Source: an uncultured virus (IMG/VR IMGVR_UViG_3300033463_005796) (Duplodnaviria > Heunggongvirae > Uroviricota > Caudoviricetes). From it: DNA of 64,000 bases. A program made the position numbers and the translations under genes. The DNA lies in IMG/VR virus record IMGVR_UViG_3300033463_005796, one strand, 5' to 3'. Shown here piece after piece: positions 4,177 through 40,251 of the stretch; within the stretch, counting starts at the first letter, position 1; each line of letters starts with the position of its first letter. The notes below the pieces were generated by a model. The model saw only the letters and a list, made by a program, of their open reading frames with translations. It was not told where the DNA came from and did no database searches.

Positions 4177-4177
4177 T

Positions 4178-12148: not shown

Positions 12149-13696
12149 CTATGCTGCTAGAGCTTTTCGGACTGCATCATAGCGTGGAGCATCAAGCTGC
12201 TCAATGATGATGTCATATGGGTCAAGCTTGTTGCTCATCACCATCTTCATGATCGACTGGTTGAAGCCAGAAATCAATCCAACACCAAGGTCATTCTCAA
12301 CCATTGGGATTGTCCCAGTACGTGAGTTGATGTTCCAGAAGAAGAGCTTTGGCATCTTGTAGCCGGCAGCTTTCCACTTTTTCTCAATCTCTTTGAACAG
12401 ATATTCGCCTGGATTCTCACAAGCAAAATTGAACTCCATGTCAGAGAAGATGATGATCCCTGGAATCTCTTCTTGCTTGAGGTTTGCATTGACAGCTGTC
12501 CTCAAAACAAGGTCAAACACTGCTTCAAGGTTAGTTGTGCCACAATCTCCATGGCGTCCAGCAATCTTGAGCTGATTTAGAAGAGAACCATCTGAATCGA
12601 CTTGGAAGAACTCTGGATGGCTTCCAAACTCAATTGCTTTGCCACGCCATGGCTCAGCGTTGATTCCAGCAAAGTAGAGACCAAGGCCACGTGCAACGTC
12701 AATTGCCATGATGTTTCCACCAACATTTGTGCACATTGAACCGGAGCCATCAATCACTGGAATGAAGTTCGTGATTCCTTGCTGGCGGCCTTTTTCGACC
12801 ATGTCTTTCCAAGCAGCTTCAAGCGTAGCATCTTTGCTGTTTGAATAGTCACCATACCATCTGTCAGTGCAGTACTTAGAGACGATTGTTGGGCAATCAA
12901 GTGCTGCTGTGTTGATCTTAGCGCCTGACTCTGGCTTCTCAAGGTCTGCAAGCCATTGGCGACGACGAGTTTCATCGTGCTTCAAGAAGCTGTTTCTGTA
13001 GATGACTCCTGCACGAGATGGAACTTTGTTGTAGTCGATTTCACCCCACTTGTTAGAAGACATCTGAGTTTCAAGAACCTTGATATAACCACGGAGGGAA
13101 GCCAAAGTCTTGCGGTATTCCTTTTCCGTGATTCCAAGGACGTTGCGCCAGTATCTTGCAAGGTTCTTTGATTCTTGCGAAGATGCATTTGCAGATGGAC
13201 ACCACTTAGCCATCAATGAAATGCTCTTGTCAGCATCCATCCCATCGATGTCTTTGTCCCACTGGTCAACAAAAAGAAGGTTCGCTGCTTTCCGAACATC
13301 TTCAGACGCAGAAAGGAAATAAGGCGTCAACTCGAAGAATGACTTCCACGATCCATATTCAGGAATTAAGGAAAGCAGCGAAATTGCTGCAGCTGGATCA
13401 TTTTCAATGACCCAACCAAAAATCGCGTTGAAGACATGCTTCTCACCTTGGCCACCACGGCAGTCACGGACAAAGAACATCAACTCAAGTGCACGCTGCT
13501 TGTCTTCAGCATACACTTCTGAGAATGCTCTTTGAATGTCAACTGGACCAAGCTTGCGCATTGATCCAACTTTAAAAAAGAAATCGGTCAATGCATGACC
13601 TGATCGTGCATAACCTTTTGCGCCATTTTCTGTGATTGAGACTGAACCTTCAGCGTCAGTCTTCTGGAGTGAAGAGAGAAATTTGTTTGTCTTCAT
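12149..13696 (-). CDS. DUF2828-family protein (TROVE/Ro60-like helical domain plus VWA)
   Basis: TENGA, FFVRDCRGGQGEK, IPEYGSWK, LMAKWCPS, EYRKTL, IDYNKVPS, DGSGSM, TNLEAVFDLVL, FSDMEFN, FWNIN, SGF. Confidence 0.85.
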   Translation of the reverse strand: MKTNKFLSSLQKTDAEGSVSITENGAKGYARSGHALTDFFFKVGSMRKLGPVDIQRAFSEVYAEDKQRALELMFFVRDCRGGQGEKHVFNAIFGWVIENDPAAAISLLSLIPEYGSWKSFFELTPYFLSASEDVRKAANLLFVDQWDKDIDGMDADKSISLMAKWCPSANASSQESKNLARYWRNVLGITEKEYRKTLASLRGYIKVLETQMSSNKWGEIDYNKVPSRAGVIYRNSFLKHDETRRRQWLADLEKPESGAKINTAALDCPTIVSKYCTDRWYGDYSNSKDATLEAAWKDMVEKGRQQGITNFIPVIDGSGSMCTNVGGNIMAIDVARGLGLYFAGINAEPWRGKAIEFGSHPEFFQVDSDGSLLNQLKIAGRHGDCGTTNLEAVFDLVLRTAVNANLKQEEIPGIIIFSDMEFNFACENPGEYLFKEIEKKWKAAGYKMPKLFFWNINSRTGTIPMVENDLGVGLISGFNQSIMKMVMSNKLDPYDIIIEQLDAPRYDAVRKALAA

Positions 13697-16629: not shown

Positions 16630-17481
16630 CTATTCTCCATCTTTCTTTGGAAAGAGCTTTCCAATCTTGTCTTCTTCTGTAGAAAGCTTGTAGTCCATTT
16701 TCAGTGGGACAACTTTAGTTCTAACCATGGTGTCTTCACCTGGATGGAACTGAGCATACTTTGGATCAATCTTCTCGATTGATGTCTTCTTGATGAGCCA
16801 GTGCCCATACAGAATATTGAAATCAATGCCCATCAGATGATGACCAGCCTTTGAAAGCATTTCAATGCGTTGGTCTTGTGACTTTCCAAGCAGTTCTTTG
16901 TGAGTGAACCACCTCTGCGCATATTGGTTGATAGCGCCACGAATGCAGTCATTCTGCCTCCAGACGAAGCAGTTGACAAGCTCCATCAGATCTGGAAGCT
17001 GGACAATCCTGCAATCAAATGATGGATATTCATTCTGCAAAATTGCAACGTCATCACGCTCTCTTTTAAGATCTAGAATACTTCCATCTCCAAAGAAATT
17101 AAAGACTGATCTTGTAAAAGCCATGCCAGCGTAAGATGCAATGTTCGAGACAAGCTTGAAGTATTTTCTATCAAATGGCGCAGTCTTGATGTTCTTCCAA
17201 CCAAGTGAGATCTCATCTGAATGTGTTTCAGCAACATCACACTTGAACTCGTTCATAAGCATGTAAGCGGTTGTTTGCATAAGCTGAGAAAACACAAATG
17301 AACGCTTCTCAGCAGGAAGATCCTTGAATGGATATCCAAGATTCTTAGTCAGCTTTGAAAAGTGGCGCCCGTCAATCCGTGCATATAGAGGAAGATCAGG
17401 AATGAGCAGCTGTCCATTTGCTACTTCCTCATAGCGCTTCATACGCTGTCCAAGCGCATCATACTCGTTTTCTTTGCTCAT
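16630..17481 (-). CDS. Thg1-like protein (tRNA-His guanylyltransferase / 3'-5' polymerase family)
   Basis: RMKRYE, RIDGRHFSK, HSDEISL, FDCR, WRQNDC motifs. Confidence 0.9.
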   Translation of the reverse strand: MSKENEYDALGQRMKRYEEVANGQLLIPDLPLYARIDGRHFSKLTKNLGYPFKDLPAEKRSFVFSQLMQTTAYMLMNEFKCDVAETHSDEISLGWKNIKTAPFDRKYFKLVSNIASYAGMAFTRSVFNFFGDGSILDLKRERDDVAILQNEYPSFDCRIVQLPDLMELVNCFVWRQNDCIRGAINQYAQRWFTHKELLGKSQDQRIEMLSKAGHHLMGIDFNILYGHWLIKKTSIEKIDPKYAQFHPGEDTMVRTKVVPLKMDYKLSTEEDKIGKLFPKKDGE

Positions 17482-17774
17482 TCTGCTTGATCCCAAAGGA
17501 TTGTAAGGCTTACTGTTTGTGTTGCAGTTCTATAGCTATGCTTAACTTCATATCCAAGATATTCTAGCCAATCAATGATTCCCTCGTATACTGGCTGTGA
17601 CTCATAGATTTGAAGAGCATTCACATCATCATAATATGCCATGTTTTCACCTTTGGCAATTTCCTTTTCAATGACTCGTTCAATGTCTTTACGAATCTTT
17701 TCTGGAACAAATCGAGCTGCAAGCTCAATGTTCCTTTTCTTAGTAGCTTCTAAAGCTTCTTTAGCTGTCTTCAT
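17478..17774 (-). CDS. hypothetical protein
   Basis: ATGA overlaps with both neighbours. Confidence 0.6.
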   Translation of the reverse strand: MKTAKEALEATKKRNIELAARFVPEKIRKDIERVIEKEIAKGENMAYYDDVNALQIYESQPVYEGIIDWLEYLGYEVKHSYRTATQTVSLTILWDQAE

Positions 17775-22493: not shown

Positions 22494-23711
22494 TTAGTCT
22501 CCATTCTTGAGAAGGTACTTAGCTGAGACCTTCTTGAAGGAGATTTCTCCATTGTCGATTCTTTTGAAGACAACACCCTCGATCTGGTTTCCATTGTCAG
22601 ACTTCCGATCGACATACTTCTCAAAGTCTTCAATTGAATGGAGCTTCTGGAAGATCTTGCAAGTCTCAATGACCTTGACATGCTCAAGGCCAAGGAACTC
22701 ACAGATAGAGTATCTGACTTCCGGAGAGACAAACTTCTGGTCAGTGATGTCAAAGATGCGGAAGACTCTGAAGTGAGACTCAGCATTCTTGTCACGGTTG
22801 CCATTGAACTTTGGTCCAATCATTTCACCTTGGATTGCAAGCTCATGCTTAGCCGGGAAGATTTCTACGTCACCATCTTTTCTCACTAAGCCAATGCCAT
22901 ACAGCGTGTCAAGTCTGTTTTTCAGACCATCCCAGCCAATCTTCTTGAAAGCAGCAAACCAGTCATCGCTTCCACCATCGTCTTTCAAGAGGAAACGACG
23001 AGAAGAGATCTGCATTGCATCTTTTCCAGTCTCGGGGTTCCAAGTCAAAGGACGGTAGAAGAGGGTGCAAGAAGAACCATCATTCTTCTCAGTGCATTCC
23101 CAATCAGCATTGGCCATCTCTGGGTCAGTGAAGTATTCCATCAGTGCCTCAAGGCGGATCTCATCAGTCTTAGGAACATCTGAAGGGAAATTGCCTGAAG
23201 CATGGGACTGTGCTCTAGGACCGAGCTGAGAACGCTCGTCAAACCACTCGACAAGACGATCATAGACTTCAACTTTGAAGAGTGAAGTCATGTCAGTCCC
23301 AACAGGAAGATCTATGAAGAATGGAGTCTCAGGAGTGTTAGGAAACTCATGAGCAATTGTCTGCAGAGGAATGACAAGACCTTGAGAGACTTGGCCACGA
23401 AGCTTGATAGTCTTGATCTTCACATACTGCTCAGAGAATGCTGAAGACTCGGGTGTCTTTCCAGTGTAAAGCTTCTTCAAAGCTACGTTCTTAAGGAACT
23501 CCATGCAAGGAAGAAGATCATTGACATTGATTGCTGAGTCAATCTCGAAGTAGACGACCTTCTGACCAACAGAAAATTCACCTTTCTTTACGACGACTTT
23601 CCAGCCAAGGTTCTTCATCTCAGCTACTTCAAGAAAGTCAGAGTTCTCAATAGGAGAAAGCTTAGCAATCTCCTGGATTGACGCCATTTTACGTTGAGTT
23701 TCAGTAAGCAT
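22494..23711 (-). CDS. ATP-dependent RNA ligase, DRB0094/Rnl5-like
   Basis: N-terminal RKMASIQ...WKVVVKKGEF...VYFEIDS...KLRGQVSQGL; PKTDEIR; motif I EKNDGSS; QGEMIGP; FDI; EGVVFK; SFKKVS. Confidence 0.9.
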   Translation of the reverse strand: MLTETQRKMASIQEIAKLSPIENSDFLEVAEMKNLGWKVVVKKGEFSVGQKVVYFEIDSAINVNDLLPCMEFLKNVALKKLYTGKTPESSAFSEQYVKIKTIKLRGQVSQGLVIPLQTIAHEFPNTPETPFFIDLPVGTDMTSLFKVEVYDRLVEWFDERSQLGPRAQSHASGNFPSDVPKTDEIRLEALMEYFTDPEMANADWECTEKNDGSSCTLFYRPLTWNPETGKDAMQISSRRFLLKDDGGSDDWFAAFKKIGWDGLKNRLDTLYGIGLVRKDGDVEIFPAKHELAIQGEMIGPKFNGNRDKNAESHFRVFRIFDITDQKFVSPEVRYSICEFLGLEHVKVIETCKIFQKLHSIEDFEKYVDRKSDNGNQIEGVVFKRIDNGEISFKKVSAKYLLKNGD

Positions 23712-23769: not shown

Positions 23770-24948
23770 TCATTCTATTTCAAAAAGCTGAATGAACTTG
23801 TCATCAGTGATTGACACCACAAAGTCATCTGTCAGCTTGCCATCATACGCCTTGAACCAAAGCATTGCCTGCGGCTCATTCTTATGACGAAGAGCAAAAT
23901 CTTTTCTAGAAAGGTGCTCTTCATTGATTTCACCATCAACACAAGTCTTAATGAACTTTACTCTCAGCATTGCAGCATTGACTCGAAGTCTAACCTCATC
24001 AAAGCGCTCCTTGTACTCGGGGAAATATGAAAGGAATTCAGCATCTTCACCTTTGCGGATCAAAGCTACCATTGCTTCTAGATCCATTGCTCCGTTTGAC
24101 ATCTGCTTGTGCAGTTGGAAATAGAGCTTTGATTTCATCTTGATCCTATTGCCATTGCCATCTCTGACAACAATGCCCTCATGCTTAATGCCAAATCCTT
24201 CAACAAGATTCGTGTAGTCTTCAGGAGACTTCATCTCATAAGCTGTTGGAGTGTCAACACCTAGCTGATATCCAACATAGCCATCAACCACAAGGTTCCC
24301 CGTCAGCTCTGCTCCATCTTCATTTCTGAACCTGCCAATAAGGAAGAGCTTTGGCTTTGGATAGTCAATGACAATGCGATTGAACCTAGAGCAAAGCTCA
24401 AAGCAATATGTCGCCTTCTTCCAAAGATATCCTCCTGTAAATGGATCTTTGCTATCCGGGCTTTCAAGCTTTTTCTTGAATTTAGGATAGTTCTTCTCAA
24501 TAATGTCTCTCAGCAGTGCGCCAAATGTTGGGTAGATGGCATCTGACAGTTCTGCTTCATCTACATCGAAGTTCTGTCGAGTTCCAAAAATCCAACGTCC
24601 ATCATAGTATGAAAGAAACACTAGTGTCCCATCTTCCTTGATTGTGGCATTTGCAGTGTCCCAATCGATATTTGCAGCAGGGCCTTCACCATAGTTGAAG
24701 AACCTGTTGAACCCCTTTCTTACGATTTTGAACTTCTCTTTTGAGTCAAGGACAAGGCCACGAGCTTCAGCTACGATTGGATCATAGTTGTCAGACTCAA
24801 GCATGTTGTAGTTGAACATGACATAGCGTCCATCTGCAAAAGACGAACGCTTGATCTTCAATGAATAAGGAGGTAGCTGAAGTGCAGCTTCCCAATCATC
24901 ATGCTCAAAAATGAACTTTTGAATGTTTAGCATCTTTTTATAGGTCAT
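23770..24948 (-). CDS. T4 Rnl1-like RNA ligase
   Basis: EARGLVL, RFFNYGE, motif I KEDGTL, FELCS...NRIV, EGIVV, RIKMKS. Confidence 0.88.
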   Translation of the reverse strand: MTYKKMLNIQKFIFEHDDWEAALQLPPYSLKIKRSSFADGRYVMFNYNMLESDNYDPIVAEARGLVLDSKEKFKIVRKGFNRFFNYGEGPAANIDWDTANATIKEDGTLVFLSYYDGRWIFGTRQNFDVDEAELSDAIYPTFGALLRDIIEKNYPKFKKKLESPDSKDPFTGGYLWKKATYCFELCSRFNRIVIDYPKPKLFLIGRFRNEDGAELTGNLVVDGYVGYQLGVDTPTAYEMKSPEDYTNLVEGFGIKHEGIVVRDGNGNRIKMKSKLYFQLHKQMSNGAMDLEAMVALIRKGEDAEFLSYFPEYKERFDEVRLRVNAAMLRVKFIKTCVDGEINEEHLSRKDFALRHKNEPQAMLWFKAYDGKLTDDFVVSITDDKFIQLFEIE

Positions 24949-25771
24949 CTAGTGTTTGTTCTTCACCCTTGCACATTGCAAGGAACTCTTTCTCAGACAG
25001 GAGCTTTGTCCCAAGCTCACGAGCTTTGCAGGCTTTAGTCGATGTGCTGTTAGGATCAGCAATGACAAGATAAGTAAGGCCCTTTGAAACACTGCTCTTG
25101 ATCTCAAACCCAACAGACTCAGCAAGCTTCTGAGCTTCAGTCCGCCCCATTGTCTCAAGTGCGCCTGTGAAACAAATAGACCCCTTAGAAGATGGGCGAG
25201 CGACATCATCTACTCCGCTATAGTGGTATCTAGAATCAGTAACAATCTTCTTTGTATTCTCAATGGCTTCAGGAAGATATTCCCAAAAAGCTTCAATTGA
25301 CTTCTCACCAATTCCAGCAGGAAGAGTTGAAAGCATATGCTGCTTCTCATTGTCTTCATGCTTCAGGCCCATGATCCAGTCAAAATGGTAATGCTCGATG
25401 ATCTTTCCAATCTGAACTTCTGCTAGACCCTTGAAGTGCATTGCTCTAAAGATCTTCTGTGGAGAAGCTGAAAACAGCTTGTCATTCAGCTCATTGTAAA
25501 GTGTAGTCTCACTCTTATAGTTTGGATTTGGAGTGAATGAGATCAAATCACTGACAGTCTTGATTCCAAAGTTGTCAAGCTGCTTCTTAGCTGAATGCTT
25601 GATGTCAAACTTCTTGATGAACACAGTCAAAGCAGTGCCAAGCTTAGCTTCACACTCTTTGTTCATGCATCGAAGGTCAACACCATCAACCACCAATGGA
25701 GATCCACAGCATGGACAGACCATTGGCGCCAGATAGCGGTCATGTAGCTCTTGAACTGAAATGTCTTTCAT
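24938..25771 (-). CDS. NAD-dependent DNA ligase, C-terminal part (Zn finger, HhH, BRCT)
   Basis: CPCCGSPL...LRCMNKEC, GIGEKS HhH, ICFTGAL...SSVSKGLTYLV...KARELG BRCT. Confidence 0.85.
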   Translation of the reverse strand: MKDISVQELHDRYLAPMVCPCCGSPLVVDGVDLRCMNKECEAKLGTALTVFIKKFDIKHSAKKQLDNFGIKTVSDLISFTPNPNYKSETTLYNELNDKLFSASPQKIFRAMHFKGLAEVQIGKIIEHYHFDWIMGLKHEDNEKQHMLSTLPAGIGEKSIEAFWEYLPEAIENTKKIVTDSRYHYSGVDDVARPSSKGSICFTGALETMGRTEAQKLAESVGFEIKSSVSKGLTYLVIADPNSTSTKACKARELGTKLLSEKEFLAMCKGEEQTLDDL

Positions 25772-25927: not shown

Positions 25928-26003
25928 TGGGGCGGCGGATGGGATTTGAACCCATAGTTATTCGGACCACAACCGAAAGTCTTGCCATTAGACGACTGCC
26001 ACC
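25928..26003 (-). tRNA. tRNA-His(GTG), G-1 encoded
   Basis: cloverleaf, TTCGG-TTGTGGT-CCGAA, C73, CCA. Confidence 0.9.
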
Positions 26004-26809
26004 ATTTTAATATTTTCTAAAGATATTTTACCATTTATAAAATCACCATAATTTGTTTTATCAATAAAAAGTATTTTAACATCATTTTGTGTTAAAACTA
26101 ATTTCATTTTTTCTTTATCTTTTGAACTATAAAAACCTTTCACTTCAATGTATAAATCATTTTTTGGAATATAAAAATCTGGAATATATCTGTGTTCAGA
26201 ATTATCTTCTTTAAAATATTTTATTGTTTTATTTCTTTCCCAGAGTATTCCTAAATCATTTAATCTTTTTGCAACATTTAATTCCCATAATCCTTGAAGT
26301 TTATATTCTTCATTATTTATATTAAAATATGAATAAAACTTTACATCAGTTCTTTGTGAAGGTAACTTTCCATTTTTATATAAATAAATTTTTGTTCTTG
26401 ACATTTTATCACGTGATTCTTTAGAATGATGTCTTCCTTTAAATCCCGGTATTATTTTTCCATTTTTTATATTATTTATATATGTTTCACTACCTCTTTT
26501 AATACTAATATTTGTTTCTTTTGTCAAACCTTTATTCCATCCACCTTTAACACAGAGTTGTGAATGTTCTTTATGCTGGTGTTCTTTTAATTTAGCACGT
26601 GTTTCTCCAATAAAATCACAATGTGAACATTTCCATGTTCCAAATGGTGATTTTAATTTTAGATGACTAGTAGATGTATTAAAATTACAAACATGCCTTT
26701 TTACTTTAGAGGCAATAAATTTCATTCTACATGATTTAGAACAAAATCTTCCACTACCATAAGATCCATCATGCTCTTTCTTACAAAATTCACAAATATA
26801 TTTTTCCAT
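25988..26809 (-). CDS. putative homing endonuclease (Zn finger, NUMOD3-like, PD-(D/E)xK domain)
   Basis: CEFC...RFCSKSC, FKGRHHSKESRDKMS, YIPDFY...IEVKG; very AT-rich insertion in tRNA array. Confidence 0.75.
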   Translation of the reverse strand: MEKYICEFCKKEHDGSYGSGRFCSKSCRMKFIASKVKRHVCNFNTSTSHLKLKSPFGTWKCSHCDFIGETRAKLKEHQHKEHSQLCVKGGWNKGLTKETNISIKRGSETYINNIKNGKIIPGFKGRHHSKESRDKMSRTKIYLYKNGKLPSQRTDVKFYSYFNINNEEYKLQGLWELNVAKRLNDLGILWERNKTIKYFKEDNSEHRYIPDFYIPKNDLYIEVKGFYSSKDKEKMKLVLTQNDVKILFIDKTNYGDFINGKISLENIKMVAVV

Positions 26810-26844
26810 ATAATTTAATTACTTTAAATGATTAAATTATTGGT

Positions 26845-26867
26845 TTACCAAACTGAGCTACCGTCGC
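26845..26867 (-). pseudogene. 5' fragment of a tRNA
   Basis: GCGACGG-TA-GCTCAGTTTGGTAA then breaks off at the endonuclease leader. Confidence 0.55.
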
Positions 26868-26868
26868 A

Positions 26869-26944
26869 TGGCACATTGAGCCAGACTCGAACTAGCATTA
26901 GTGGATTTGGAGTCCACGGTCCTAACCAATTGGACGATCAATGT
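26869..26944 (-). tRNA. tRNA-Trp(CCA)
   Basis: GTGGA-CTCCAAA-TCCAC, CCA end. Confidence 0.92.
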
Positions 26945-26946
26945 AT

Positions 26947-27021
26947 TGGCATTTCCGCTGGGAATCGAACCCAGACCTTCTGAATGAGAATCAGAGAACC
27001 TAACCTTTAATCGACGGAAAC
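26947..27021 (-). tRNA. tRNA-Glu(CTC)
   Basis: TCTGA-TTCTCAT-TCAGA. Confidence 0.92.
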
Positions 27022-27096
27022 TGGCGTCCCATGCTGGAGTCAAACCAACTTCACTGGTTCCGTAGACCAGGGCCCGATTCGTTAGACCAATGGGAC
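27022..27096 (-). tRNA. tRNA-Arg(ACG)
   Basis: CTGGT-CTACGGA-ACCAG. Confidence 0.9.
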
Positions 27097-27104
27097 ATAT
27101 AAGA

Positions 27105-27180
27105 TGGAGCATTCGGTGGGTGCCGCCCCCACGTATAGCGGTTTTGCAGACCGCCGCGTTTGCTGTTTCGCCACGAATGC
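27105..27180 (-). tRNA. tRNA-Cys(GCA)
   Basis: GCGGT-CTGCAAA-ACCGC, U73, atypical T loop. Confidence 0.85.
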
Positions 27181-27181
27181 T

Positions 27182-27256
27182 TGGTGCTGGAAGATGGAAT
27201 CGCACCACCGACGCTCTGCTCTTCAGGCAGACGCTCTACTTCTGAGCTATTCCAGC
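27182..27256 (-). tRNA. tRNA-Phe(GAA)
   Basis: TCTGC-CTGAAGA-GCAGA. Confidence 0.92.
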
Positions 27257-27331
27257 TTTTGCTCTTGAATTCCATCTGCAATCCGAAGCCAGACCACTTA
27301 GATTTTAAAGTTGTCGAAATCAAATCAACTT

Positions 27332-27406
27332 TGGTATGTCTGACAGGACTCGAACCCGCATAGAATTCCTTAGGACGGAACCGAGGATCCATTCCTCAAC
27401 AGACAC
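27332..27406 (-). tRNA. tRNA-Arg(CCT)
   Basis: GTTCC-GTCCTAA-GGAAT. Confidence 0.85.
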
Positions 27407-27482
27407 TGGTGGGCATGGCAGGATTCGAACTTGCACTTGACTGCCTCTGAAACAGTTGCCTCTGCCGTTGGGCTACATACCC
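27407..27482 (-). tRNA. tRNA-Leu(CAG), short variable loop
   Basis: ACTGT-TTCAGAG-GCAGT, A73, 5-nt variable loop. Confidence 0.85.
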
Positions 27483-27490
27483 GAAATCAA

Positions 27491-27565
27491 TGGTGGCGTT
27501 GGCAGGACTCGAACCTACAACCATGGGATTATGATTCCCGTGCTCTACCATTGAGCCACAACGCC
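27491..27565 (-). tRNA. tRNA-Met(CAT), elongator (Ile2 not excluded)
   Basis: CGGGA-ATCATAA-TCCCA, G2:C71 and C3:G70. Confidence 0.88.
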
Positions 27566-27577
27566 ACTGTGAAGAAG

Positions 27578-27664
27578 TGGTGGGCCTGATAGGAATTGCA
27601 CCTACACGGGATTTCTCCCCTTGGATCCTTAGTCCAAGGCGGCTGCTAGTTACGCCACAGACCC
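27578..27664 (-). tRNA. tRNA-Leu(AAG)
   Basis: TTGGA-CTAAGGA-TCCAA, long variable arm. Confidence 0.85.
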
Positions 27665-27698
27665 ATATTTATATTTTACTTTTTGAAAGTTGAAATTT

Positions 27699-27787
27699 CA
27701 GAGAGGAGAGGATTCGAACCTCCGGACGTTTTTAGGCGCCACAGCATTTCCAGTGCTGCTCCATAAGCCAGACTCGGACACCTCTCT
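27699..27787 (-). tRNA. tRNA-Ser(GGA), no encoded CCA
   Basis: CAGCA-CTGGAAA-TGCTG, long variable arm, G73. Confidence 0.9.
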
Positions 27788-27792
27788 ATAGT

Positions 27793-27884
27793 TGGCGCCG
27801 GGAGAAGGATTCGAACCTTCGGGACGTTTTGAGGCGTCCAACGGTTTAGCAAACCGTCGCTTTAAGCCACTCAGCCATCCCAGC
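27793..27884 (-). tRNA. tRNA-Ser(GCT)
   Basis: ACGGT-TTGCTAA-ACCGT, long variable arm. Confidence 0.92.
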
Positions 27885-27892
27885 ATTAAATT

Positions 27893-27984
27893 TGGCGGAA
27901 GGTGAGGGCTTCGCTCCCCCGTGGCTTTTTAGGGCCAACCGCATTTCGAGTGCGGCGCGATAAGCTGGACTCTGCCAACCTTCC
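27893..27984 (-). tRNA. tRNA-Ser(CGA)
   Basis: CCGCA-CTCGAAA-TGCGG, long variable arm, atypical T loop. Confidence 0.88.
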
Positions 27985-28060
27985 TGGTGGTCCCAGCCCG
28001 ACTCGAACAGGCGACATTCTGCGTGTAAAGCAGACGTTCTAACCACTGAACTATGGAACC
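27985..28060 (-). tRNA. tRNA-Val(TAC)
   Basis: TCTGC-TTTACAC-GCAGA. Confidence 0.92.
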
Positions 28061-28134
28061 TGGTTGTCCCTCAGGGATTCGGACCCCGACTAACTGATCC
28101 AGAGTCAGTTGTGCTGCCATTACACCAAGGGACA
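28061..28134 (-). tRNA. tRNA-Gln(CTG)
   Basis: ACTGA-CTCTGGA-TCAGT. Confidence 0.92.
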
Positions 28135-28139
28135 ATAAA

Positions 28140-28215
28140 TGGAGCACGTGATGGGATTTGAACCCACGACATCCTCCATGGCAAGGAGGCATTCTAGCCA
28201 CTGAATTACACGCGC
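28140..28215 (-). tRNA. tRNA-Gly(GCC)
   Basis: CCTCC-TTGCCAT-GGAGG. Confidence 0.92.
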
Positions 28216-28221
28216 ATTTTA

Positions 28222-28298
28222 TGGTCGGCCAGGTCCGACTTGAACGGACGACTTTCTCCTTATCAGGGAGACTATCTAACCAGCTGATATACTGGCCG
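28222..28298 (-). tRNA. tRNA-Ile(GAT)
   Basis: TCTCC-CTGATAA-GGAGA. Confidence 0.92.
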
Positions 28299-28322
28299 AT
28301 GAAAATATTTTAAATATTATAC

Positions 28323-28985
28323 TTATTTACCATTTTTAATTTTTCGCCCAGCTTTCCAACCATTTGGAATAGATTCTGTTTTAAAAATTGTTTTTGATTC
28401 TAAGGTCTTAATATTATAAATCCAAATTTTACCATACATTGCATTTTTATTTTTAAAATGGTTTTTTGACATTTTCTTTCTTGTTTCTTCAGAATGATTT
28501 TTTCCAAACATTGGATTTTTATTACCGACTCTACTAAATTTTTCAGGATTATTTAGTTTTGCTTTTGCTATTCCTTCTTTTACTCTTTTTTTATGATATT
28601 CAGATAATTTTTTCCCTATTTTGCCAATATTATTTAATTTCATTTTATTTATGTAAATAAATCCAAAATTTCCATCATTAATACTATCTCTATTTTTATT
28701 TATATAATCCCATCCACCATCTCCACCAACTTTTAAATTATACGTATCATCTCTAGCTACAAACTCTTCATTAACAATCTCTTTTTCTTTTGCATCCATT
28801 TCATCTTTGTCCTTACAAAAGAAAAGAATTTTTCTATCAAAATTTTCTATGCCATATTTATTAATAGCATTCCAAAGAATTTTTCCTGATCCTAAATAAC
28901 CATCATTGAGATTATTTGTTTGGTGCTGACCAATATAAATTTTTCCATTTATTTTATTTGTTGTTTGATAAATTAAAAAATACAT
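28323..28985 (-). CDS. GIY-YIG (Seg-like) homing endonuclease with NUMOD3 motif
   Basis: LIYQTTNKINGKIYIGQH, YLGSG, YNLKVGG, NPMFGKNHSEETRKKMS; AT-rich. Confidence 0.88.
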   Translation of the reverse strand: MYFLIYQTTNKINGKIYIGQHQTNNLNDGYLGSGKILWNAINKYGIENFDRKILFFCKDKDEMDAKEKEIVNEEFVARDDTYNLKVGGDGGWDYINKNRDSINDGNFGFIYINKMKLNNIGKIGKKLSEYHKKRVKEGIAKAKLNNPEKFSRVGNKNPMFGKNHSEETRKKMSKNHFKNKNAMYGKIWIYNIKTLESKTIFKTESIPNGWKAGRKIKNGK

Positions 28986-29026
28986 AATTGAACCTTTAAA
29001 AATATTTACTTTTTAAAGGTTCAATT
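28986..29026 (-). promoter_or_regulatory. perfect 16-bp inverted repeat abutting the endonuclease ATG, with AGTAAATAT in the loop
   Basis: AATTGAACCTTTAAAA-N9-TTTTAAAGGTTCAATT. Confidence 0.7.
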
Positions 29027-29033
29027 CTAAGCT

Positions 29034-29107
29034 TTGCGGGAGCATGATTTGAACATGCAACACACGGGTTATGGGCCCGTTGAGCTACCGGGTTGCTCTA
29101 TCCCGCA
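29034..29107 (-). tRNA. initiator-type tRNA-Met(CAT), no encoded CCA
   Basis: ACGGG-CCCATAA-CCCGT with three G:C pairs, GAGC/GCTC D stem. Confidence 0.88.
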
Positions 29108-29196
29108 GTAATTAAAGGTTCAATATTATTTACAAAAAACCCATCAGAGTTGAACCTCAAGGAGAATTACTTCTATCTTGAACTCTGATGAATAAG

Positions 29197-29277
29197 AGAG
29201 TCCGCTACTCTGCCGATTGAGTTACACCGGAATAATTGGTTCCGGTGGAGGGACTTGAACCCTCAACTCGCGGATTA
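29197..29277 (-). tRNA. circularly permuted tRNA, most likely Lys(CTT), split in the anticodon
   Basis: 3' half 29277-29237 (TAATCCGC...CACCGGAACCA) precedes 5' half 29231-29197 (TCCGGTG...GCGGACTCT); all four stems pair. Confidence 0.8.
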
Positions 29278-29352
29278 TGGCAAGGCACCCGGGAGTTGAA
29301 CCCGGCTCTTCGGGATGAAAGCCCGATGAACTAACCGATATTCGAGTGCCTC
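29278..29352 (-). tRNA. tRNA-Glu(TTC)
   Basis: TCGGG-CTTTCAT-CCCGA, G73, CCA. Confidence 0.9.
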
Positions 29353-29359
29353 ATTAAGC

Positions 29360-29435
29360 TGGCTCCCAGACCAGGATTCGGACCTGGAACTACCTGATTA
29401 ACAGTCAGGACTTCTACCAATTGAAGTATCTGGGA
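29360..29435 (-). tRNA. tRNA-Asn(GTT)
   Basis: CCTGA-CTGTTAA-TCAGG. Confidence 0.92.
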
Positions 29436-29455
29436 ATAATTGAAAATATTATACT

Positions 29456-29533
29456 TGGTCGGAGAGATAGGATTTGAACCTACGACATCTTGCTCCCAAA
29501 GCAAGCGCTCTAGCCAGACTGAGCTACTCTCCG
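29456..29533 (-). tRNA. tRNA-Pro(TGG)
   Basis: CTTGC-TTTGGGA-GCAAG. Confidence 0.93.
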
Positions 29534-29539
29534 TTAAGT

Positions 29540-29673
29540 TGGTTTGTCCAATAGGATTTTCACCTATATCACCGGCCGTATTCTCCGGTGTTCTTTCAGT
29601 CAAAGATAGGTCGACTCTGCTTTGACCTAGCGGCTCTCCATCATCTTGCTTCGTCCGCTTGAACTATGAACAA
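29540..29673 (-). ncRNA. tRNA-like RNA with a large structured D-loop insertion
   Basis: acceptor TTGTTCA/TGGACAA-ACCA, T arm ATAGG/CCTAT, D stem GTTC/GAAC enclosing about 67 nt, non-canonical anticodon loop. Confidence 0.7.
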
Positions 29674-29691
29674 ATGAAAAATGATTGATGT

Positions 29692-29768
29692 TGGTGGACA
29701 CGTGGGGACTCGAACCCCGATCCTCTGAGTGCAAATCAGAAATTCTAACCAAATTGAACTACCGGCCC
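29692..29768 (-). tRNA. tRNA-Ala(TGC), imperfect acceptor stem
   Basis: TCTGA-TTTGCAC-TCAGA, G3:U70. Confidence 0.82.
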
Positions 29769-29773
29769 ATGAA

Positions 29774-29932
29774 TGGTGGCGCCTGGTGGTAACGCTCCAC
29801 CCGTCCCGAAGGAGCAGATTTTGGCGGGCTCACGGGGAATCGAACCCCGAATAATGGATCGACAATCCATAGTTATAACCGTTTAACTATGAGCCCACAG
29901 TCTGCCGCCCCTCTTTAGAGCTATAAGACGCC
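29774..29932 (-). tRNA. tRNA-Tyr(GTA) interrupted in the anticodon by a complete tRNA-Asp
   Basis: 5' half 29932-29897 ends GCAGA-CTGT; 3' half 29821-29774 starts AAA-TCTGC; acceptor GGCGTCT/AGGCGCC-ACCA; long variable arm. Confidence 0.85.
29822..29896 (-). tRNA. tRNA-Asp(GTC), nested in tRNA-Tyr
   Basis: GGGCTCA/TGAGCCC-GCCA, ATGGA-TTGTCGA-TCCAT. Confidence 0.92.
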
Positions 29933-29965
29933 ATAGGAAAGTTTGTTCGTTTGTCACAGATCAAA

Positions 29966-30040
29966 TGGAGCCGGCTGAGAATTCCGAGATCTCGACCCGC
30001 GGTTTACAAAACCGCTGCTCTGCCGCTGAGCTAAGCCGGC
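29966..30040 (-). tRNA. tRNA-Thr(TGT)
   Basis: GCGGT-TTTGTAA-ACCGC, atypical T arm. Confidence 0.87.
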
Positions 30041-30102
30041 ATTTAGATATATTGTACCTAGTTATTTACTTTTTACTTTTTGTTTTTTCACTTATTTTTG
30101 TT

Positions 30103-30178
30103 TGGAGCCGAGGCTCAGGATCGAACTGAGAACCGATGCTTACGAGGCAACTGTTTTAACCAGTTAAACTATCCCGGC
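30103..30178 (-). tRNA. tRNA-Thr(CGT)
   Basis: GTTGC-CTCGTAA-GCATC. Confidence 0.88.
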
Positions 30179-30181
30179 ATG

Positions 30182-30325
30182 AATAGTTGTAGCAATACCA
30201 TACGTTTGCTCTTTTTCAGCCCCTACGTTCCAATCAATGCAGTTCATCACACAACAGGCTCGACTAGTATTACCTTCATGCAATTCCCTGAACGGAAAAG
30301 ACTAGCTCTTGGTGGGACAACTATT
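30182..30325 (-). ncRNA. candidate rod-shaped ncRNA
   Basis: terminal AATAGTTGT/ACAACTATT plus nested short stems. Confidence 0.45.
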
Positions 30326-30340
30326 AAGAACCTTTAAAAA

Positions 30341-30583
30341 TCAAACTGAATAATCATGATCTAGATATTCATCAGTGAAGACATTATACCTATTGATGCC
30401 AACGATCTTTTTGCCGAAATCATTCTGAGAAATCATTAGCGTCCGTCTCTGAAGGCTGTCTCCCTTCTTCCAAATTGGCTTCTTGAAGACAAGCATAATG
30501 CTGCCGCCCCAAGGCTCCCAACCAATGATGTCTTTCACTGAAACTTTTTTCGTGCGATGAGCTGACTGGTCGTAGAATTTCAT
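30341..30583 (-). CDS. hypothetical protein
   Basis: ORF with AAGGAA RBS and class I promoter upstream. Confidence 0.6.
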   Translation of the reverse strand: MKFYDQSAHRTKKVSVKDIIGWEPWGGSIMLVFKKPIWKKGDSLQRRTLMISQNDFGKKIVGINRYNVFTDEYLDHDYSV

Positions 30584-30777
30584 GTGTGTTTTCCTTGTTG
30601 TTCGTTTGACGATTTGATTATATCAAGATTGGATTTCTTTAGCAGACTAAATTCAGATTTGAAAAAATTTTGACTTTCTTAAAAAGTGACCCTTACGCCC
30701 CAGAGTATTTTTCAATTTTATGGTTTTGCCCGGGAATGAAAAACTGATACGCATGGAGCAGCTAGCAAAGGATGGAG

Positions 30778-30851
30778 GCAGAACCGAGGTAAAAGTTCGG
30801 CATGAAGCACTTAAGATACGCAACGAATCCGTCATCTCCATTTTAATCTGC
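30778..30851 (-). ncRNA. structured RNA motif copy 1 (three-way junction with pseudoknot)
   Basis: paralog at 50589-50651 with compensatory change. Confidence 0.65.
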
Positions 30852-30880
30852 CTGCGCGCGACTTGCCACCTTGCCAATTA

Positions 30881-31025
30881 GGATCATCTAGCCAGACTTG
30901 CACTGACGGCTCCCACTGAAATGTACACGCTCTACCGGACTGAGCTACAGTACCCTTTCGAGTACCGATTGGATTTGAACCAATGACCTTGTGGTGTGGC
31001 GCTCTACTACCTGAGCTATAGATGA
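30881..31025 (-). ncRNA. double-tRNA (dumbbell) RNA
   Basis: outer tRNA halves enclose a permuted tRNA domain whose acceptor stem is capped by GAAA. Confidence 0.8.
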
Positions 31026-32036: not shown

Positions 32037-33119
32037 TTAAATTTTTCTTCCATTGACTTCAACAATCTTTGGAATGATCTCACCAGACTTAAGGACTTTG
32101 ACATTGGCGCCAGGATGGATGTCATTCTTCGTGATGAAGTCTACATTGTAGAGGCTTGCTTTCTGGACAATTGTCCCTGCAAGCTCAACCGGGTCAAGCA
32201 AAGCGACTGGGACAAACTTGCCGTCTTTGGATGGACCAGTCCATTCAATCCCTACGACTACTGAATCTGCAATAGACTCATTGATCTTGTAAGCAATCTG
32301 GTTCTCTGGAATGAGCTTGTCTTCATTCCTGTAGCTGTCATCAGACATGACAAGGCCATCGACTCCATAAGGGAATGGCTGCTTGACATAGCGGCGAAGC
32401 TCTTCATTGAAGCGCTCAAAGCTTTCAGCTGTCAGAGTGTAGACTTCAGTTGGCGTGATAGTCTTGTTCCAAGCTACATAGAAGCCATTCTTCTCAAGGA
32501 ATTCAAACTGCTCTTTCTTAGTGAACTTGTCGCCAAACACCGTGTAAGCGACAAATGTGATCTTCTTCAGGTCTTCAGTGATGTCTTTGCGTCCAACAAT
32601 CCCTGCAGTAGCATTGCGAGGATTGGCAAAGTCAAGGCCTTCAAAGTCTTTTTCAAGGATGACAAGCTCACCACGGATGTCAAGAGTGCTCTTGTCATAG
32701 ATCGACTTTGGAACATAGCTGACGCTGAAGATCTTGTCAGTGATGTTCTCACCTCTGCTTCCATCTCCACGAGTAGTTGCAGATACTAAGCTTCCATTCT
32801 CATAATGGAGCCTGCAGCTGATGCCATCGACTTTAGCACTGATGTTCAGTCCAGTCGTGACATGGCTGTTAAGCCACTTCTCAAGGTTCTCGGGCTCTTC
32901 AGCTTTGAACTTCTCAAGAGAGCCCATAGGATATGGATGCTGGACTTTGCCAGCTTTCTCAAACAGCGTTGAACGGAACTTTGTCCACTCTTCAAATGAA
33001 AGATTGCTTCTAAGCTCATCACAAAGGCCATCAAACTCCTGGTCAGACATCACAGGATTGCCTTCACGATAAGCAACGTTAGCAGAAATGATTTTGCTCT
33101 TGAGTTCAGCAGTAGTCAT
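32037..33119 (-). CDS. ligA: NAD-dependent DNA ligase, N-terminal part (Ia, adenylation, OB domains)
   Basis: YREGNPVMSDQEFD, HPYPMGSLEK, KVDG, TRGDGSRGENIT, RGE, NPRNATAG, DGLV, AYK, KSGEIIPKI then stop. Confidence 0.9.
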   Translation of the reverse strand: MTTAELKSKIISANVAYREGNPVMSDQEFDGLCDELRSNLSFEEWTKFRSTLFEKAGKVQHPYPMGSLEKFKAEEPENLEKWLNSHVTTGLNISAKVDGISCRLHYENGSLVSATTRGDGSRGENITDKIFSVSYVPKSIYDKSTLDIRGELVILEKDFEGLDFANPRNATAGIVGRKDITEDLKKITFVAYTVFGDKFTKKEQFEFLEKNGFYVAWNKTITPTEVYTLTAESFERFNEELRRYVKQPFPYGVDGLVMSDDSYRNEDKLIPENQIAYKINESIADSVVVGIEWTGPSKDGKFVPVALLDPVELAGTIVQKASLYNVDFITKNDIHPGANVKVLKSGEIIPKIVEVNGRKI

Positions 33120-39108: not shown

Positions 39109-40251
39109 TCAAGAGGCCTTTTCTTTTGCAAGAGAAACCATCGACAGGAACTCAGACTCGGACAGAAGCTTTGTCCCAAATGCACGCGCACGGCAAGCTT
39201 TGATCGACGTAGAGTTAGGATCAGCCATCACAAGGTATTTCAAGCTTTGTGTCACACTAGTATGGATGTCAAATCCAACAGACCGAGCAAGCTTCTGCGC
39301 ATCTGCACGAGTCATTGTCTCAAGTGCGCCTGTGAAGCAGATAGAGCCTTTATAAGGAACTGTCTTGTTCTGAGGAACTTCTTCTGGCTTGTCAAGCGTA
39401 CTGGCTGCAAGCTCTAGCATGTCAATAGAAGGAGGAGCAGAAGGAGCATCAGCTGCAATAGGCTCTTCAGCCATTGGAGCTTCCGGCTCAACAGGAACCT
39501 GAATCTCCTTCTTTCTGAAGATGATCAAGTTCTGCCCGTATTCAACATGCTTGAACTCAGAATACTCATAGCCATCAGCAATGATCTCACGGAACTTCTC
39601 CTTGCAGACTGCAAGGAACTCATTGCGCTTAGTTGCACGGCACCAGTTCCTCTTCTTCTTGCTGTCAGGAATTGGACCAACACCGACAGTCTGAAAATGA
39701 CGGAACCGATAGAGCTGCTTGTCCGGATCGAACCAAAGCGAATAAGTGTTGTGAACTCCTCGAGAATAGCTGCCTTTACTTTGGTAGTTGTAAGACCATC
39801 CAGTATCAAAGTCAACAATGGCTTTTTCTAGAGGAACTAGTGTGACACGGTCAACACCATTCTTTCGAGACCAAGAAGCATGGTCGTTGTCAAGACAAAG
39901 AAGATGGACATCAGGCGTAGTATTTCCCCAAGAAGTCGGCTTGATGAAGCCATCAGGAAGCTTATAGAACTTTGAATCATTCCCTGAAAGGCCCCCTCGG
40001 AAAGAACGCTCAAACGCTTCACAGTAATTTCGGCCAATCTTTCGAACTTCTCGATTGCCAGCTTCTACCTTGACTCGAACTTCTTCATACTTTCGGATCA
40101 TGGCTTCATGAAGAGCATCAGAGATGTCCTTCGGAAGATACTGCTCTTTGACAATCGGGTGAGAAGTCGCAGCTCCCCAACCGGGACCGTTGTACCACTT
40201 CTCAGTGCAGATCGAGATGAGCTCACCGGGGAATTCAGCTTTGCGTGCCAT
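39109..40251 (-). CDS. protein with C-terminal ligase-type BRCT domain
   Basis: KGSICFTGALETM...ADPNSTS.KAC.AR..GTKLLSE.EFL nearly identical to BRCT of 24938..25771. Confidence 0.8.
   Translation of the reverse strand: MARKAEFPGELISICTEKWYNGPGWGAATSHPIVKEQYLPKDISDALHEAMIRKYEEVRVKVEAGNREVRKIGRNYCEAFERSFRGGLSGNDSKFYKLPDGFIKPTSWGNTTPDVHLLCLDNDHASWSRKNGVDRVTLVPLEKAIVDFDTGWSYNYQSKGSYSRGVHNTYSLWFDPDKQLYRFRHFQTVGVGPIPDSKKKRNWCRATKRNEFLAVCKEKFREIIADGYEYSEFKHVEYGQNLIIFRKKEIQVPVEPEAPMAEEPIAADAPSAPPSIDMLELAASTLDKPEEVPQNKTVPYKGSICFTGALETMTRADAQKLARSVGFDIHTSVTQSLKYLVMADPNSTSIKACRARAFGTKLLSESEFLSMVSLAKEKAS

Follow-up and report, generated by a model that had tools for sequence, protein, structure and literature searches.

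How can a tRNA gene be expressed when a second, complete tRNA gene lies within its anticodon? The question is raised by a locus in the uncultured virus IMGVR_UViG_3300033463_005796 (IMG/VR; Caudoviricetes), of which a 64,000-nt stretch, here called the window, was analysed. On its minus strand, positions 29932..29774 form a 159-nt element in three parts, a 36-nt 5′ part, a 75-nt tRNA-Asp(GTC) and a 48-nt 3′ part, the first and last of which together make up a tRNA-Tyr(GTA)-like gene. The nested pair is real and conserved in nature. Its best reading, to which we give about an even chance, is that maturation of the tRNA-Asp ends, followed by ligation, would splice the tRNA-Tyr. The parts are as follows:

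29897..29932, minus strand: 5′ half of the outer tRNA-Tyr(GTA)-like gene, with the acceptor 5′ strand and a shifted D arm
29822..29896, minus strand: inner canonical tRNA-Asp(GTC), 75 nt, CCA encoded (ARAGORN; Rfam tRNA)
29774..29821, minus strand: 3′ half of the outer tRNA-Tyr-like gene, with loop nt 36-38 (AAA) and the anticodon stem 3′ strand TCTGC

A tRNA gene nested within a tRNA gene

The 5′ half ends with the anticodon stem 5′ strand GCAGA followed by CTGT, loop nt 32-35, and beyond its anticodon stem strand the 3′ half holds a long variable arm, a T arm (loop AGCGTTA), the acceptor 3′ strand AGGCGCC, A73 and CCA. The tRNA-Asp is inserted between anticodon nt 35 and 36 of the outer gene. 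It scores 66.6 bits against Rfam RF00005 (gathering score 29), ends with a discriminator G and CCA, and is recognised by both ARAGORN, as tRNA-Asp(gtc), and Rfam as a cloverleaf with its anticodon in a 7-nt loop. The insert consists of the mature tRNA sequence alone, without terminal repeats or extra bases, and its identity (Asp) is unlike that of the gene it interrupts.

Removal of exactly these 75 nt leaves an outer cloverleaf that has its full set of 24 pairs (acceptor 7, D 4, anticodon 5, variable 3, T 5), with a 7-nt loop CTGTAAA carrying the anticodon GTA, A73, an encoded CCA and a long variable arm that forms a hairpin. The original prediction, made from the letters of this stretch, was of a complete tRNA-Asp within a tRNA-Tyr-like gene with no spare base on either side, whose removal restores the loop, a 5-bp stem, a paired acceptor, A73 and the long variable arm; ARAGORN, Rfam, the pairing counts and the relatives described below all bear out this anatomy.

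Imposed on the sequences that flank each of the 25 remaining ARAGORN tRNAs in the window, this geometry gives only 6-15 of 24 pairs. At 200,000 random positions the mean is 9.0 pairs and the top score below 24 is 20 (two draws); five draws at 24/24 are presumed to be hits on the true site, of which about three are expected. In the minimum free energy (MFE) fold of the 159-mer, one cloverleaf sits within another (−64.2 kcal/mol, z −3.3). Both this fold and the consensus fold place the 5′ junction within a helix and leave the 3′ junction in a single strand of 5 nt.

Metagenome contigs were scanned once with a pattern of the outer 3′ half that required its T arm. Four loci matched (L003-L006), and all four are nested at the identical two junctions, with CTGT abutting nt 1 of the inner tRNA and the inner GCCA abutting AAATCTGC. 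The inner gene is always a tRNA-Asp(GTC), of 75-78 nt and 57.4-66.6 bits on the Rfam tRNA model. L003 comes from a phage that is syntenic with the window at 88-98% DNA identity and has an identical nested element; L004, L005 and L006 are less closely related. Among the nested loci the inner tRNA-Asp takes three different sequences, and the outer acceptor strands differ as follows:

Window: 5′ GGCGTCT, 3′ AGGCGCC
L004: 5′ CCCGTCT, 3′ AGGCGGG
L005: 5′ CCCGTCT, 3′ AGACGGG
L006: 5′ GGCGTGT, 3′ ACACGCC

In an alignment of five rows, four of them distinct, and 28 pairs, from which the variable arm was left out (MAFFT placed it out of register), 99.1% of cells pair, compared with 34-49% when the 3′ partner is slid by 1-3 columns. 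Both sides have changed in eight pairs, namely three of the seven in the outer acceptor, one of the four in the outer D stem (pair 13-25, from C-G to A-U in L004) and four of the seven in the inner acceptor. The outer acceptor is 100% paired in every row, and over the outer stems 84 of 84 cells pair (21 pairs in each of the four distinct rows), while the outer loops are invariant. The variable-arm stem, read by hand, is likewise compensated (TCC/GGA in the window, AGCC/GGCT in L004 and L005, AGTC/GACT in L006). The anticodon and T stems do not vary, which for the T stem is uninformative because the search pattern demanded a T arm. The recurrence of nesting in the relatives, at identical junctions and with compensatory changes, strengthens the anatomy originally predicted.

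Identity between lineages is distributed unevenly over the locus:

Outer 5′ half: 31-36 of 36
Outer 3′ half: 42-49 of 51
Inner tRNA-Asp: 49-54 of 78-86
100-nt flanks: about 50-70%

The outer halves are therefore better conserved than both the inner tRNA-Asp and the flanks. Beyond the metagenome loci, neither the 3′-half pattern nor the 5′-half motif has a match in viral_contigs or genome_contigs. Searches of viral_contigs with the 5′ junction 17-mer (two matches, both by chance and in coding DNA), with an uninterrupted Tyr plus AGCGTTA pattern (five matches, all by chance and none in a tRNA) and with a general pattern for any 60-85-nt insert ending in CCA at position 35/36 (no match) found no further example. 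A blastn search of 29600-30200 against 50,697 phage records returned only short matches to other tRNAs, in 13 records.

Filled and empty alleles of a tRNA-Tyr-like gene

The window looks like part of a large uncultured phage of the ruminant gut. Its complete DNA is present in two runs (X1, X2) of one bovine gut sample, and parts of it occur in other bovine and goat gut studies. Logan contigs from four runs (X3-X6) of four other studies were placed on 28986-31000 at a likeness of at least 85%, and the insert-free allele is known from the coordinates of the joints and pieces of these contigs. One contig each in X3, X4 and X6 carries a joint from 29821 to 29897 that skips 75 nt, with no letters common to both sides; the shorter side of the joint measures 30 nt in X3, 130 nt in X4 and 52 nt in X6, and in X4 (record 13) the two pieces adjoin, at record positions 363 and 364. 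What the joint leaves out is precisely the tRNA-Asp called by ARAGORN. Since X3, X4 and X6 are DNA runs, these relatives carry the outer tRNA-Tyr gene uninterrupted. The nested form is present in X5 (record 18, covering 29692-29975 with two differences) and in X3 (record 6, covering 29780-30040 with 22 differences and four gaps). A filled/empty polymorphism therefore exists, and its ends are the ends of the mature tRNA. As read from the coordinates of X6 record 22, about 78 unmatched letters that end in CCA between the Tyr and Ala genes may be a free-standing tRNA.

Is the outer gene a tRNA-Tyr? Tyrosine identity is defined by a GUA anticodon, A73 and a long variable arm, all of which the outer gene possesses, the anticodon in a 7-nt loop, and the cloverleaf pairs after removal of the insert both in the window and across the relatives. 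The insert-free outer sequences, computed by script from the nested loci, are 84-87 nt long, as against 85 nt for Escherichia coli tyrT; they are 49-60% identical to it overall, and their whole 17-nt anticodon arm is identical to that of tyrT. Of the features of a bacterial tRNA-Tyr, the outer gene lacks the canonical elbow (a GG in the D loop and a TTC-type T loop) and acceptance by the detector ARAGORN. From these features we infer a bacterial-type tRNA-Tyr(GUA) with an unusual elbow, presumably charged with tyrosine.

To our knowledge, known tRNA introns are all either self-splicing ribozymes or cut at a bulge-helix-bulge (BHB) by a dedicated endonuclease, and the insert fits neither kind. 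Group I introns of bacterial and phage tRNAs resemble it in their insertion in the anticodon loop, their variable presence and the homing endonuclease genes nearby, but the insert here is a 75-nt canonical tRNA with no ribozyme core: it has no P3-P8 core, and an Rfam scan at E ≤ 1 shows only tRNA, and no intron family, over the insert. The protein-spliced introns of archaeal and eukaryal tRNAs, including the multiple and non-canonical ones of Thermoproteales, are also anticodon-loop insertions, often have tRNA-Tyr as host, vary in presence among relatives and are removed by protein enzymes (a splicing endonuclease, with RtcB or Trl1) with ligation of the exons. They lie usually at 37/38 within a BHB, however, whereas the phage insert lies at 35/36, has no BHB and is itself a complete tRNA; and their splicing ends are a 2′,3′-cyclic phosphate and a 5′-OH, as opposed to the 3′-OH and 5′-phosphate of the cuts proposed below. 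The only signals available here for excision are the ends of the second tRNA.

Partial parallels exist elsewhere. In the split and permuted tRNAs of Nanoarchaeum equitans and Cyanidioschyzon merolae, halves broken in or near the anticodon loop pair and are then joined, but through a BHB and a splicing endonuclease, whereas here the halves flank another tRNA in cis. In T4 tRNA repair, in which Pnkp and Rnl1 reseal the break made by PrrC, an Rnl1-family ligase likewise sits beside a phage tRNA array and acts on an anticodon-loop nick; that break is damage inflicted by the host, while here it would be programmed by gene structure and need no end-healing. The release of mascRNA from MALAT1, engineered tRNA scaffolds and tRNA-guide RNA arrays likewise use cuts by RNase P or RNase Z at a tRNA to free the flanking RNAs, and scaffolds show that an RNA can be embedded in a tRNA anticodon arm; the flanks in those systems are not halves of a second tRNA that need rejoining. 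Full-text literature searches, with subscription journals outside their coverage, found no description of a tRNA nested in a tRNA, in agreement with the earlier statement that no bacterial or phage precedent was at hand.

Proposed splicing by tRNA end processing and competing readings

How might both tRNAs be made? In the reading we prefer, the tRNA array would be transcribed as a single precursor. RNase P would cut at the 5′ end of the tRNA-Asp and leave the Tyr 5′ half with a 3′-OH, and an endonuclease, which at a guess may be of the RNase Z/BN type, would cut right after the tRNA-Asp CCA and leave the Tyr 3′ half with a 5′-phosphate. The two halves would be held together by the 7-bp acceptor and 5-bp anticodon stems until a phage ATP-dependent RNA ligase sealed the anticodon loop, so that one transcript would yield both tRNA-Asp and tRNA-Tyr. 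RNase P leaves a 3′-OH on its upstream product, RNase Z-type enzymes leave a 5′-phosphate on the trailer, and ligases of the Rnl1 and NgrRnl families join a 3′-OH to a 5′-phosphate; the chemistry therefore fits without end-healing. T4 Rnl1 seals, and prefers, breaks in tRNA anticodon loops.

Two RNA ligase genes lie about 5 kb from the nested pair:

23770..24948, minus strand: T4 Rnl1-type ATP-dependent RNA ligase, candidate sealing enzyme (PF09511, E 1.2e-17)
22494..23711, minus strand: second RNA ligase, NgrRnl-like (Naegleria), alternative sealing enzyme (PF09414, PF21189)

The first belongs to the Rnl1 family by its PF09511 score of 65 bits (cut-off 28.3) and its match to PDB 2c5u (E 4.7e-10), and it aligns with phrog_562 over profile positions 28-362 of 377 (E 3.1e-44). 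Its counterpart in L003, a partial open reading frame (ORF) at the end of that locus, is 94.7% identical over 337 of 392 aligned residues; for the window protein no relative was found in viral_contigs, and its best match in phage records, in an uncultured 484-kb phage, is 29.9% identical. The second ligase combines an N-terminal OB domain with a nucleotidyltransferase domain and matches PDB 5cot (E 3.1e-27) and phrog_968. We infer a link of both enzymes to the nested locus, with sealing as a candidate role. No clear Pnkp was identified in the window with Pfam and PHROG, which show only an AAA_33 ATPase and metallophosphoesterases, and Pfam found no RNase among 96 ORFs.

The array offers a parallel for the cut after the inner CCA. 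At four of its junctions the CCA of one tRNA is followed directly by nt 1 of the next:

27022/27021, minus strand: Arg-ACG/Glu-CTC
27407/27406, minus strand: Leu-CAG/Arg-CCT
27985/27984, minus strand: Val/Ser-CGA
28061/28060, minus strand: Gln/Val

These zero-spacer junctions indicate that in this phage one endonucleolytic cut already serves to produce a CCA end together with the 5′ end of the following tRNA. Direct tRNA linkage has been used in vitro as a method of 3′-end processing (PMC12381190). RNase P itself was considered for the 3′ junction, on the idea that the nicked anticodon stem mimics an acceptor, and rejected: the cut would fall after A38 and not after the inner A76, and RNase P could not make it because no tRNA 5′ end follows the inner CCA.

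Several points weigh against splicing. We know of no enzyme expected to cut exactly between the inner A76 and the outer A36, and where CCA is encoded, 3′ maturation is usually exonucleolytic, which would destroy the Tyr 3′ half. The Rnl1-type protein has matches in 141 phage records, and since RNA ligases are common beside tRNA arrays in large phages, finding them here is not specific to this locus. Among the relatives pair 1-72 is sometimes G-C and sometimes C-G, which would be surprising if charging by a single TyrRS depended on it. None of the 24 runs listed as containing window sequence is an RNA run, which has no bearing on expression. The elbow is a further difficulty: TTC is missing from the outer T loop AGCGTTA and GG from the D loop, the D stem lies 2 nt further towards the 3′ end, with a 4-nt linker after the acceptor stem, and ARAGORN does not call the computed insert-free 84-mer as a tRNA (with introns allowed and thresholds relaxed, it makes many spurious intron calls and still no tRNA-Tyr). 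Finally, inner and outer parts differ in history. The inner tRNAs of L004 and L006 are identical (77/77), while their outer halves differ at 5 and 7 positions and their flanks are only about 55% identical; conversely, L004 and L005 have near-identical outer halves (34/36 and 49/51) and different inner tRNAs (54/78).

What does the odd elbow signify? In the window and L003-L006, 5-bp stems around AGCGNNN loops match 15 times. Five matches are the outer Tyr genes; two are the tRNA-Ser(CGA) of the window and of L003 (loop AGCGAAG), both called by ARAGORN; two are tRNA-Ala(TGC)-like genes (L004:5910-5981 and L006:116-187, both minus strand) with the loop AGCGTTA; and the remaining six lie outside any tRNA context and look like chance. 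Both tRNA-Ala(TGC)-like genes retain G3.U70, have no GG in their short D loop and reach 42.5 and 43.4 bits with the Rfam tRNA model. Since AGCGTTA recurs in genes that keep G3.U70, the elbow marks a class of alternative-elbow phage tRNAs to which the outer Tyr gene belongs, and not decay. The original prediction had raised a decoy role on the strength of the atypical D arm and T loop; these arms are indeed atypical, but the T loop shared with the tRNA-Ala-like genes weakens the decoy.

The mosaic of inner and outer parts suggests either that they recombine at the short conserved junctions or that the inner unit moves between outer alleles. Because of these mixed histories, some compensatory changes may predate nesting and have arisen in insert-free alleles. 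Even so, none of the 84 outer cells is unpaired while the spacers change fast, which favours continued selection on the outer gene. The inner unit may be mobile. The exact mature-tRNA ends, the lack of microhomology at the joint and the differing histories together suggest gain or loss via an RNA intermediate, and point to either an insertion made by a ligase or cDNA copied from the joined tRNA. Pfam identified no reverse transcriptase in the 96 ORFs.

Of the alternatives, the one that survives best, unlikely as we consider it, is that a tRNA-Asp moving or exchanging into position 35/36 broke the Tyr gene, so that only tRNA-Asp is made and the outer halves are young, undecayed remnants. The presence/absence polymorphism with exact ends, the identical inner tRNA in the different outer genes of L004 and L006, the rejection of the insert-free sequence by ARAGORN and the homing endonuclease genes within the array all agree with such a break. 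Remnants, however, would sit poorly with 84 of 84 paired outer stem cells and invariant outer loops beside spacers that are only about 50-70% identical. At least three inner and four outer types are found nested, so that nesting must be old or recurrent, and yet the outer genes show no decay; ARAGORN finds no spare tRNA-Tyr, nor a second tRNA-Asp, in the 64-kb window or in L003-L006. The clean ends of the insert, without terminal repeats or extra bases, and its identity unlike that of the interrupted gene also count against a break.

Less likely still is a composite that is never spliced, in which the outer halves serve as a structured scaffold or decoy, for example by protecting or guiding tRNA-Asp during its processing, or by occupying a host anticodon nuclease in the guise of a nicked tRNA-Tyr. 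The noncanonical elbow would suit this, as would the stronger conservation of the outer sequence, loops included, than of a working tRNA, and the YrlA-like permuted and nested tRNA-like modules of the array together with a gene for a Ro-like RNA-binding protein in the window. Relatives with the uninterrupted outer gene argue otherwise, since its product in them functions as a single unbroken tRNA-like chain. The outer gene also has exactly the anticodon arm of a true tRNA-Tyr and retains A73, CCA and the long variable arm, and its elbow is found in Ala-type tRNAs that keep G3.U70. An artefact of assembly or a chimera at the junctions, conceivable for a metagenome assembly whose full-length DNA is present only in X1 and X2, possibly its own source, is ruled out for practical purposes because the nested junctions are independently present, in diverged sequence, in four other assemblies (L003-L006) and in the X5 and X3 contigs of other studies; assembly error, which the original prediction had named as what could undo it, did not occur.

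Splicing by end processing would, more tentatively, be tRNA splicing of a new kind, with a tRNA as the intron: universal end-maturation nucleases would excise it and a phage repair ligase would join the exons, the unit perhaps being mobile. Were the Tyr halves rejoined, the role of the splicing endonuclease would fall to RNase P and a 3′ endonuclease, and a phage ‘repair’ ligase would gain a routine job in gene expression. This would give a reason for RNA ligases beside large-phage tRNA arrays beyond the countering of host anticodon nucleases, and the pair would be a natural counterpart of the tRNA-scaffold and tRNA-array designs of RNA engineering. With their exact ends, the filled and empty alleles offer a rare opportunity to test how such an insert originates. 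Even if the outer gene were dead, the precise insertion of a mature-length tRNA into the anticodon of another, recurrent in diverged phages, would lack an explanation.

The tRNA array and its neighbourhood

The ORFs of the window are mostly small and lie mostly on a single strand. Phage-type PHROG matches include homing endonucleases, a sigma factor, RNA ligases, an NAD-dependent DNA ligase, a Ro-like RNA-binding protein and a Thg1-like enzyme, and the nearest phage records are only distant relatives of the window. The following tRNA features accompany the nested pair:

25928..30178, minus strand: tRNA array that includes the nested pair (23 ARAGORN tRNAs and two found by Rfam only)
29966-30040, minus strand: tRNA-Thr(TGT) with an odd T arm (Rfam 48.8 bits; missed by default ARAGORN)
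27105-27180, minus strand: tRNA-Cys(GCA)-like, T loop GGCGGCA (Rfam 44.9 bits; missed by default ARAGORN)

Nearly all tRNAs of the array encode CCA. The tRNA-Ser(CGA) at 27893-27984 (minus strand), with its noncanonical elbow, is called by ARAGORN and absent from the Rfam tRNA matches. No tRNA-Lys was found in the window, and a tRNA-Lys(CTT) is present in L004 and L006. A scan of the stretch from about 30100 to 29100 found no promoter-like or terminator-like sites and gave no support for reading the conserved TTGACAAACGAAC-like leader, which lies upstream of the outer gene, as a promoter.

The 158-nt spacer at 29534-29691 (minus strand), between tRNA-Ala and tRNA-Pro, looks structured, though without a distinctive fold (z −1.24), and varies among relatives. 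X4 skips it, X5 and X6 have 113 other letters in place of part of it, and L003 has an extra tRNA-Ala at this position.

At 29128-29277 (minus strand) lies a permuted tRNA-like RNA whose closing stem encloses a T arm, an acceptor-like hairpin with a CCA-containing loop and a D arm, followed by a long hairpin and a U tract (fold −49.7 kcal/mol, z −3.5). It has a partial match to the Rfam YrlA (Y RNA-like) family of 32.3 bits, below the gathering score of 69. A second YrlA-like match (30.8 bits) lies at 30881-31025 (minus strand) and has a z of only −1.25. Its fold is another nested tRNA-like design in the array: an outer tRNA-like top with a 7-bp acceptor, a D arm and a T arm carries, in place of its anticodon arm, a permuted tRNA-like top whose 8-bp hairpin is closed by GAAA. 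Contigs of all four runs X3-X6 cover the region 30100-31000. The gene at 12149-13696 encodes a Ro-like/DUF2828 RNA-binding protein.

The NAD-dependent DNA ligase is split into two minus-strand ORFs, an N-terminal one at 32037-33119 (adenylation and OB domains; phrog_3869 positions 9-381 of 656) and a C-terminal one at 24938-25771 (Zn finger and BRCT; positions 387-654). The roughly 6.3 kb between them hold the tRNA array and two homing-endonuclease-like genes, and L003 shows the same split. A third ORF with a BRCT domain is found at 39109-40251. Near the RNA ligases, a Thg1-like gene of the tRNA-His guanylyltransferase family (16630-17496, minus strand; PF04446, phrog_4717) adds to the tRNA maintenance set. 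On the opposite strand, 1555-5806 encodes two large BspA-type leucine-rich-repeat proteins, with a G+C content of 0.29-0.34 as against about 0.40-0.45 over most of the rest of the window.

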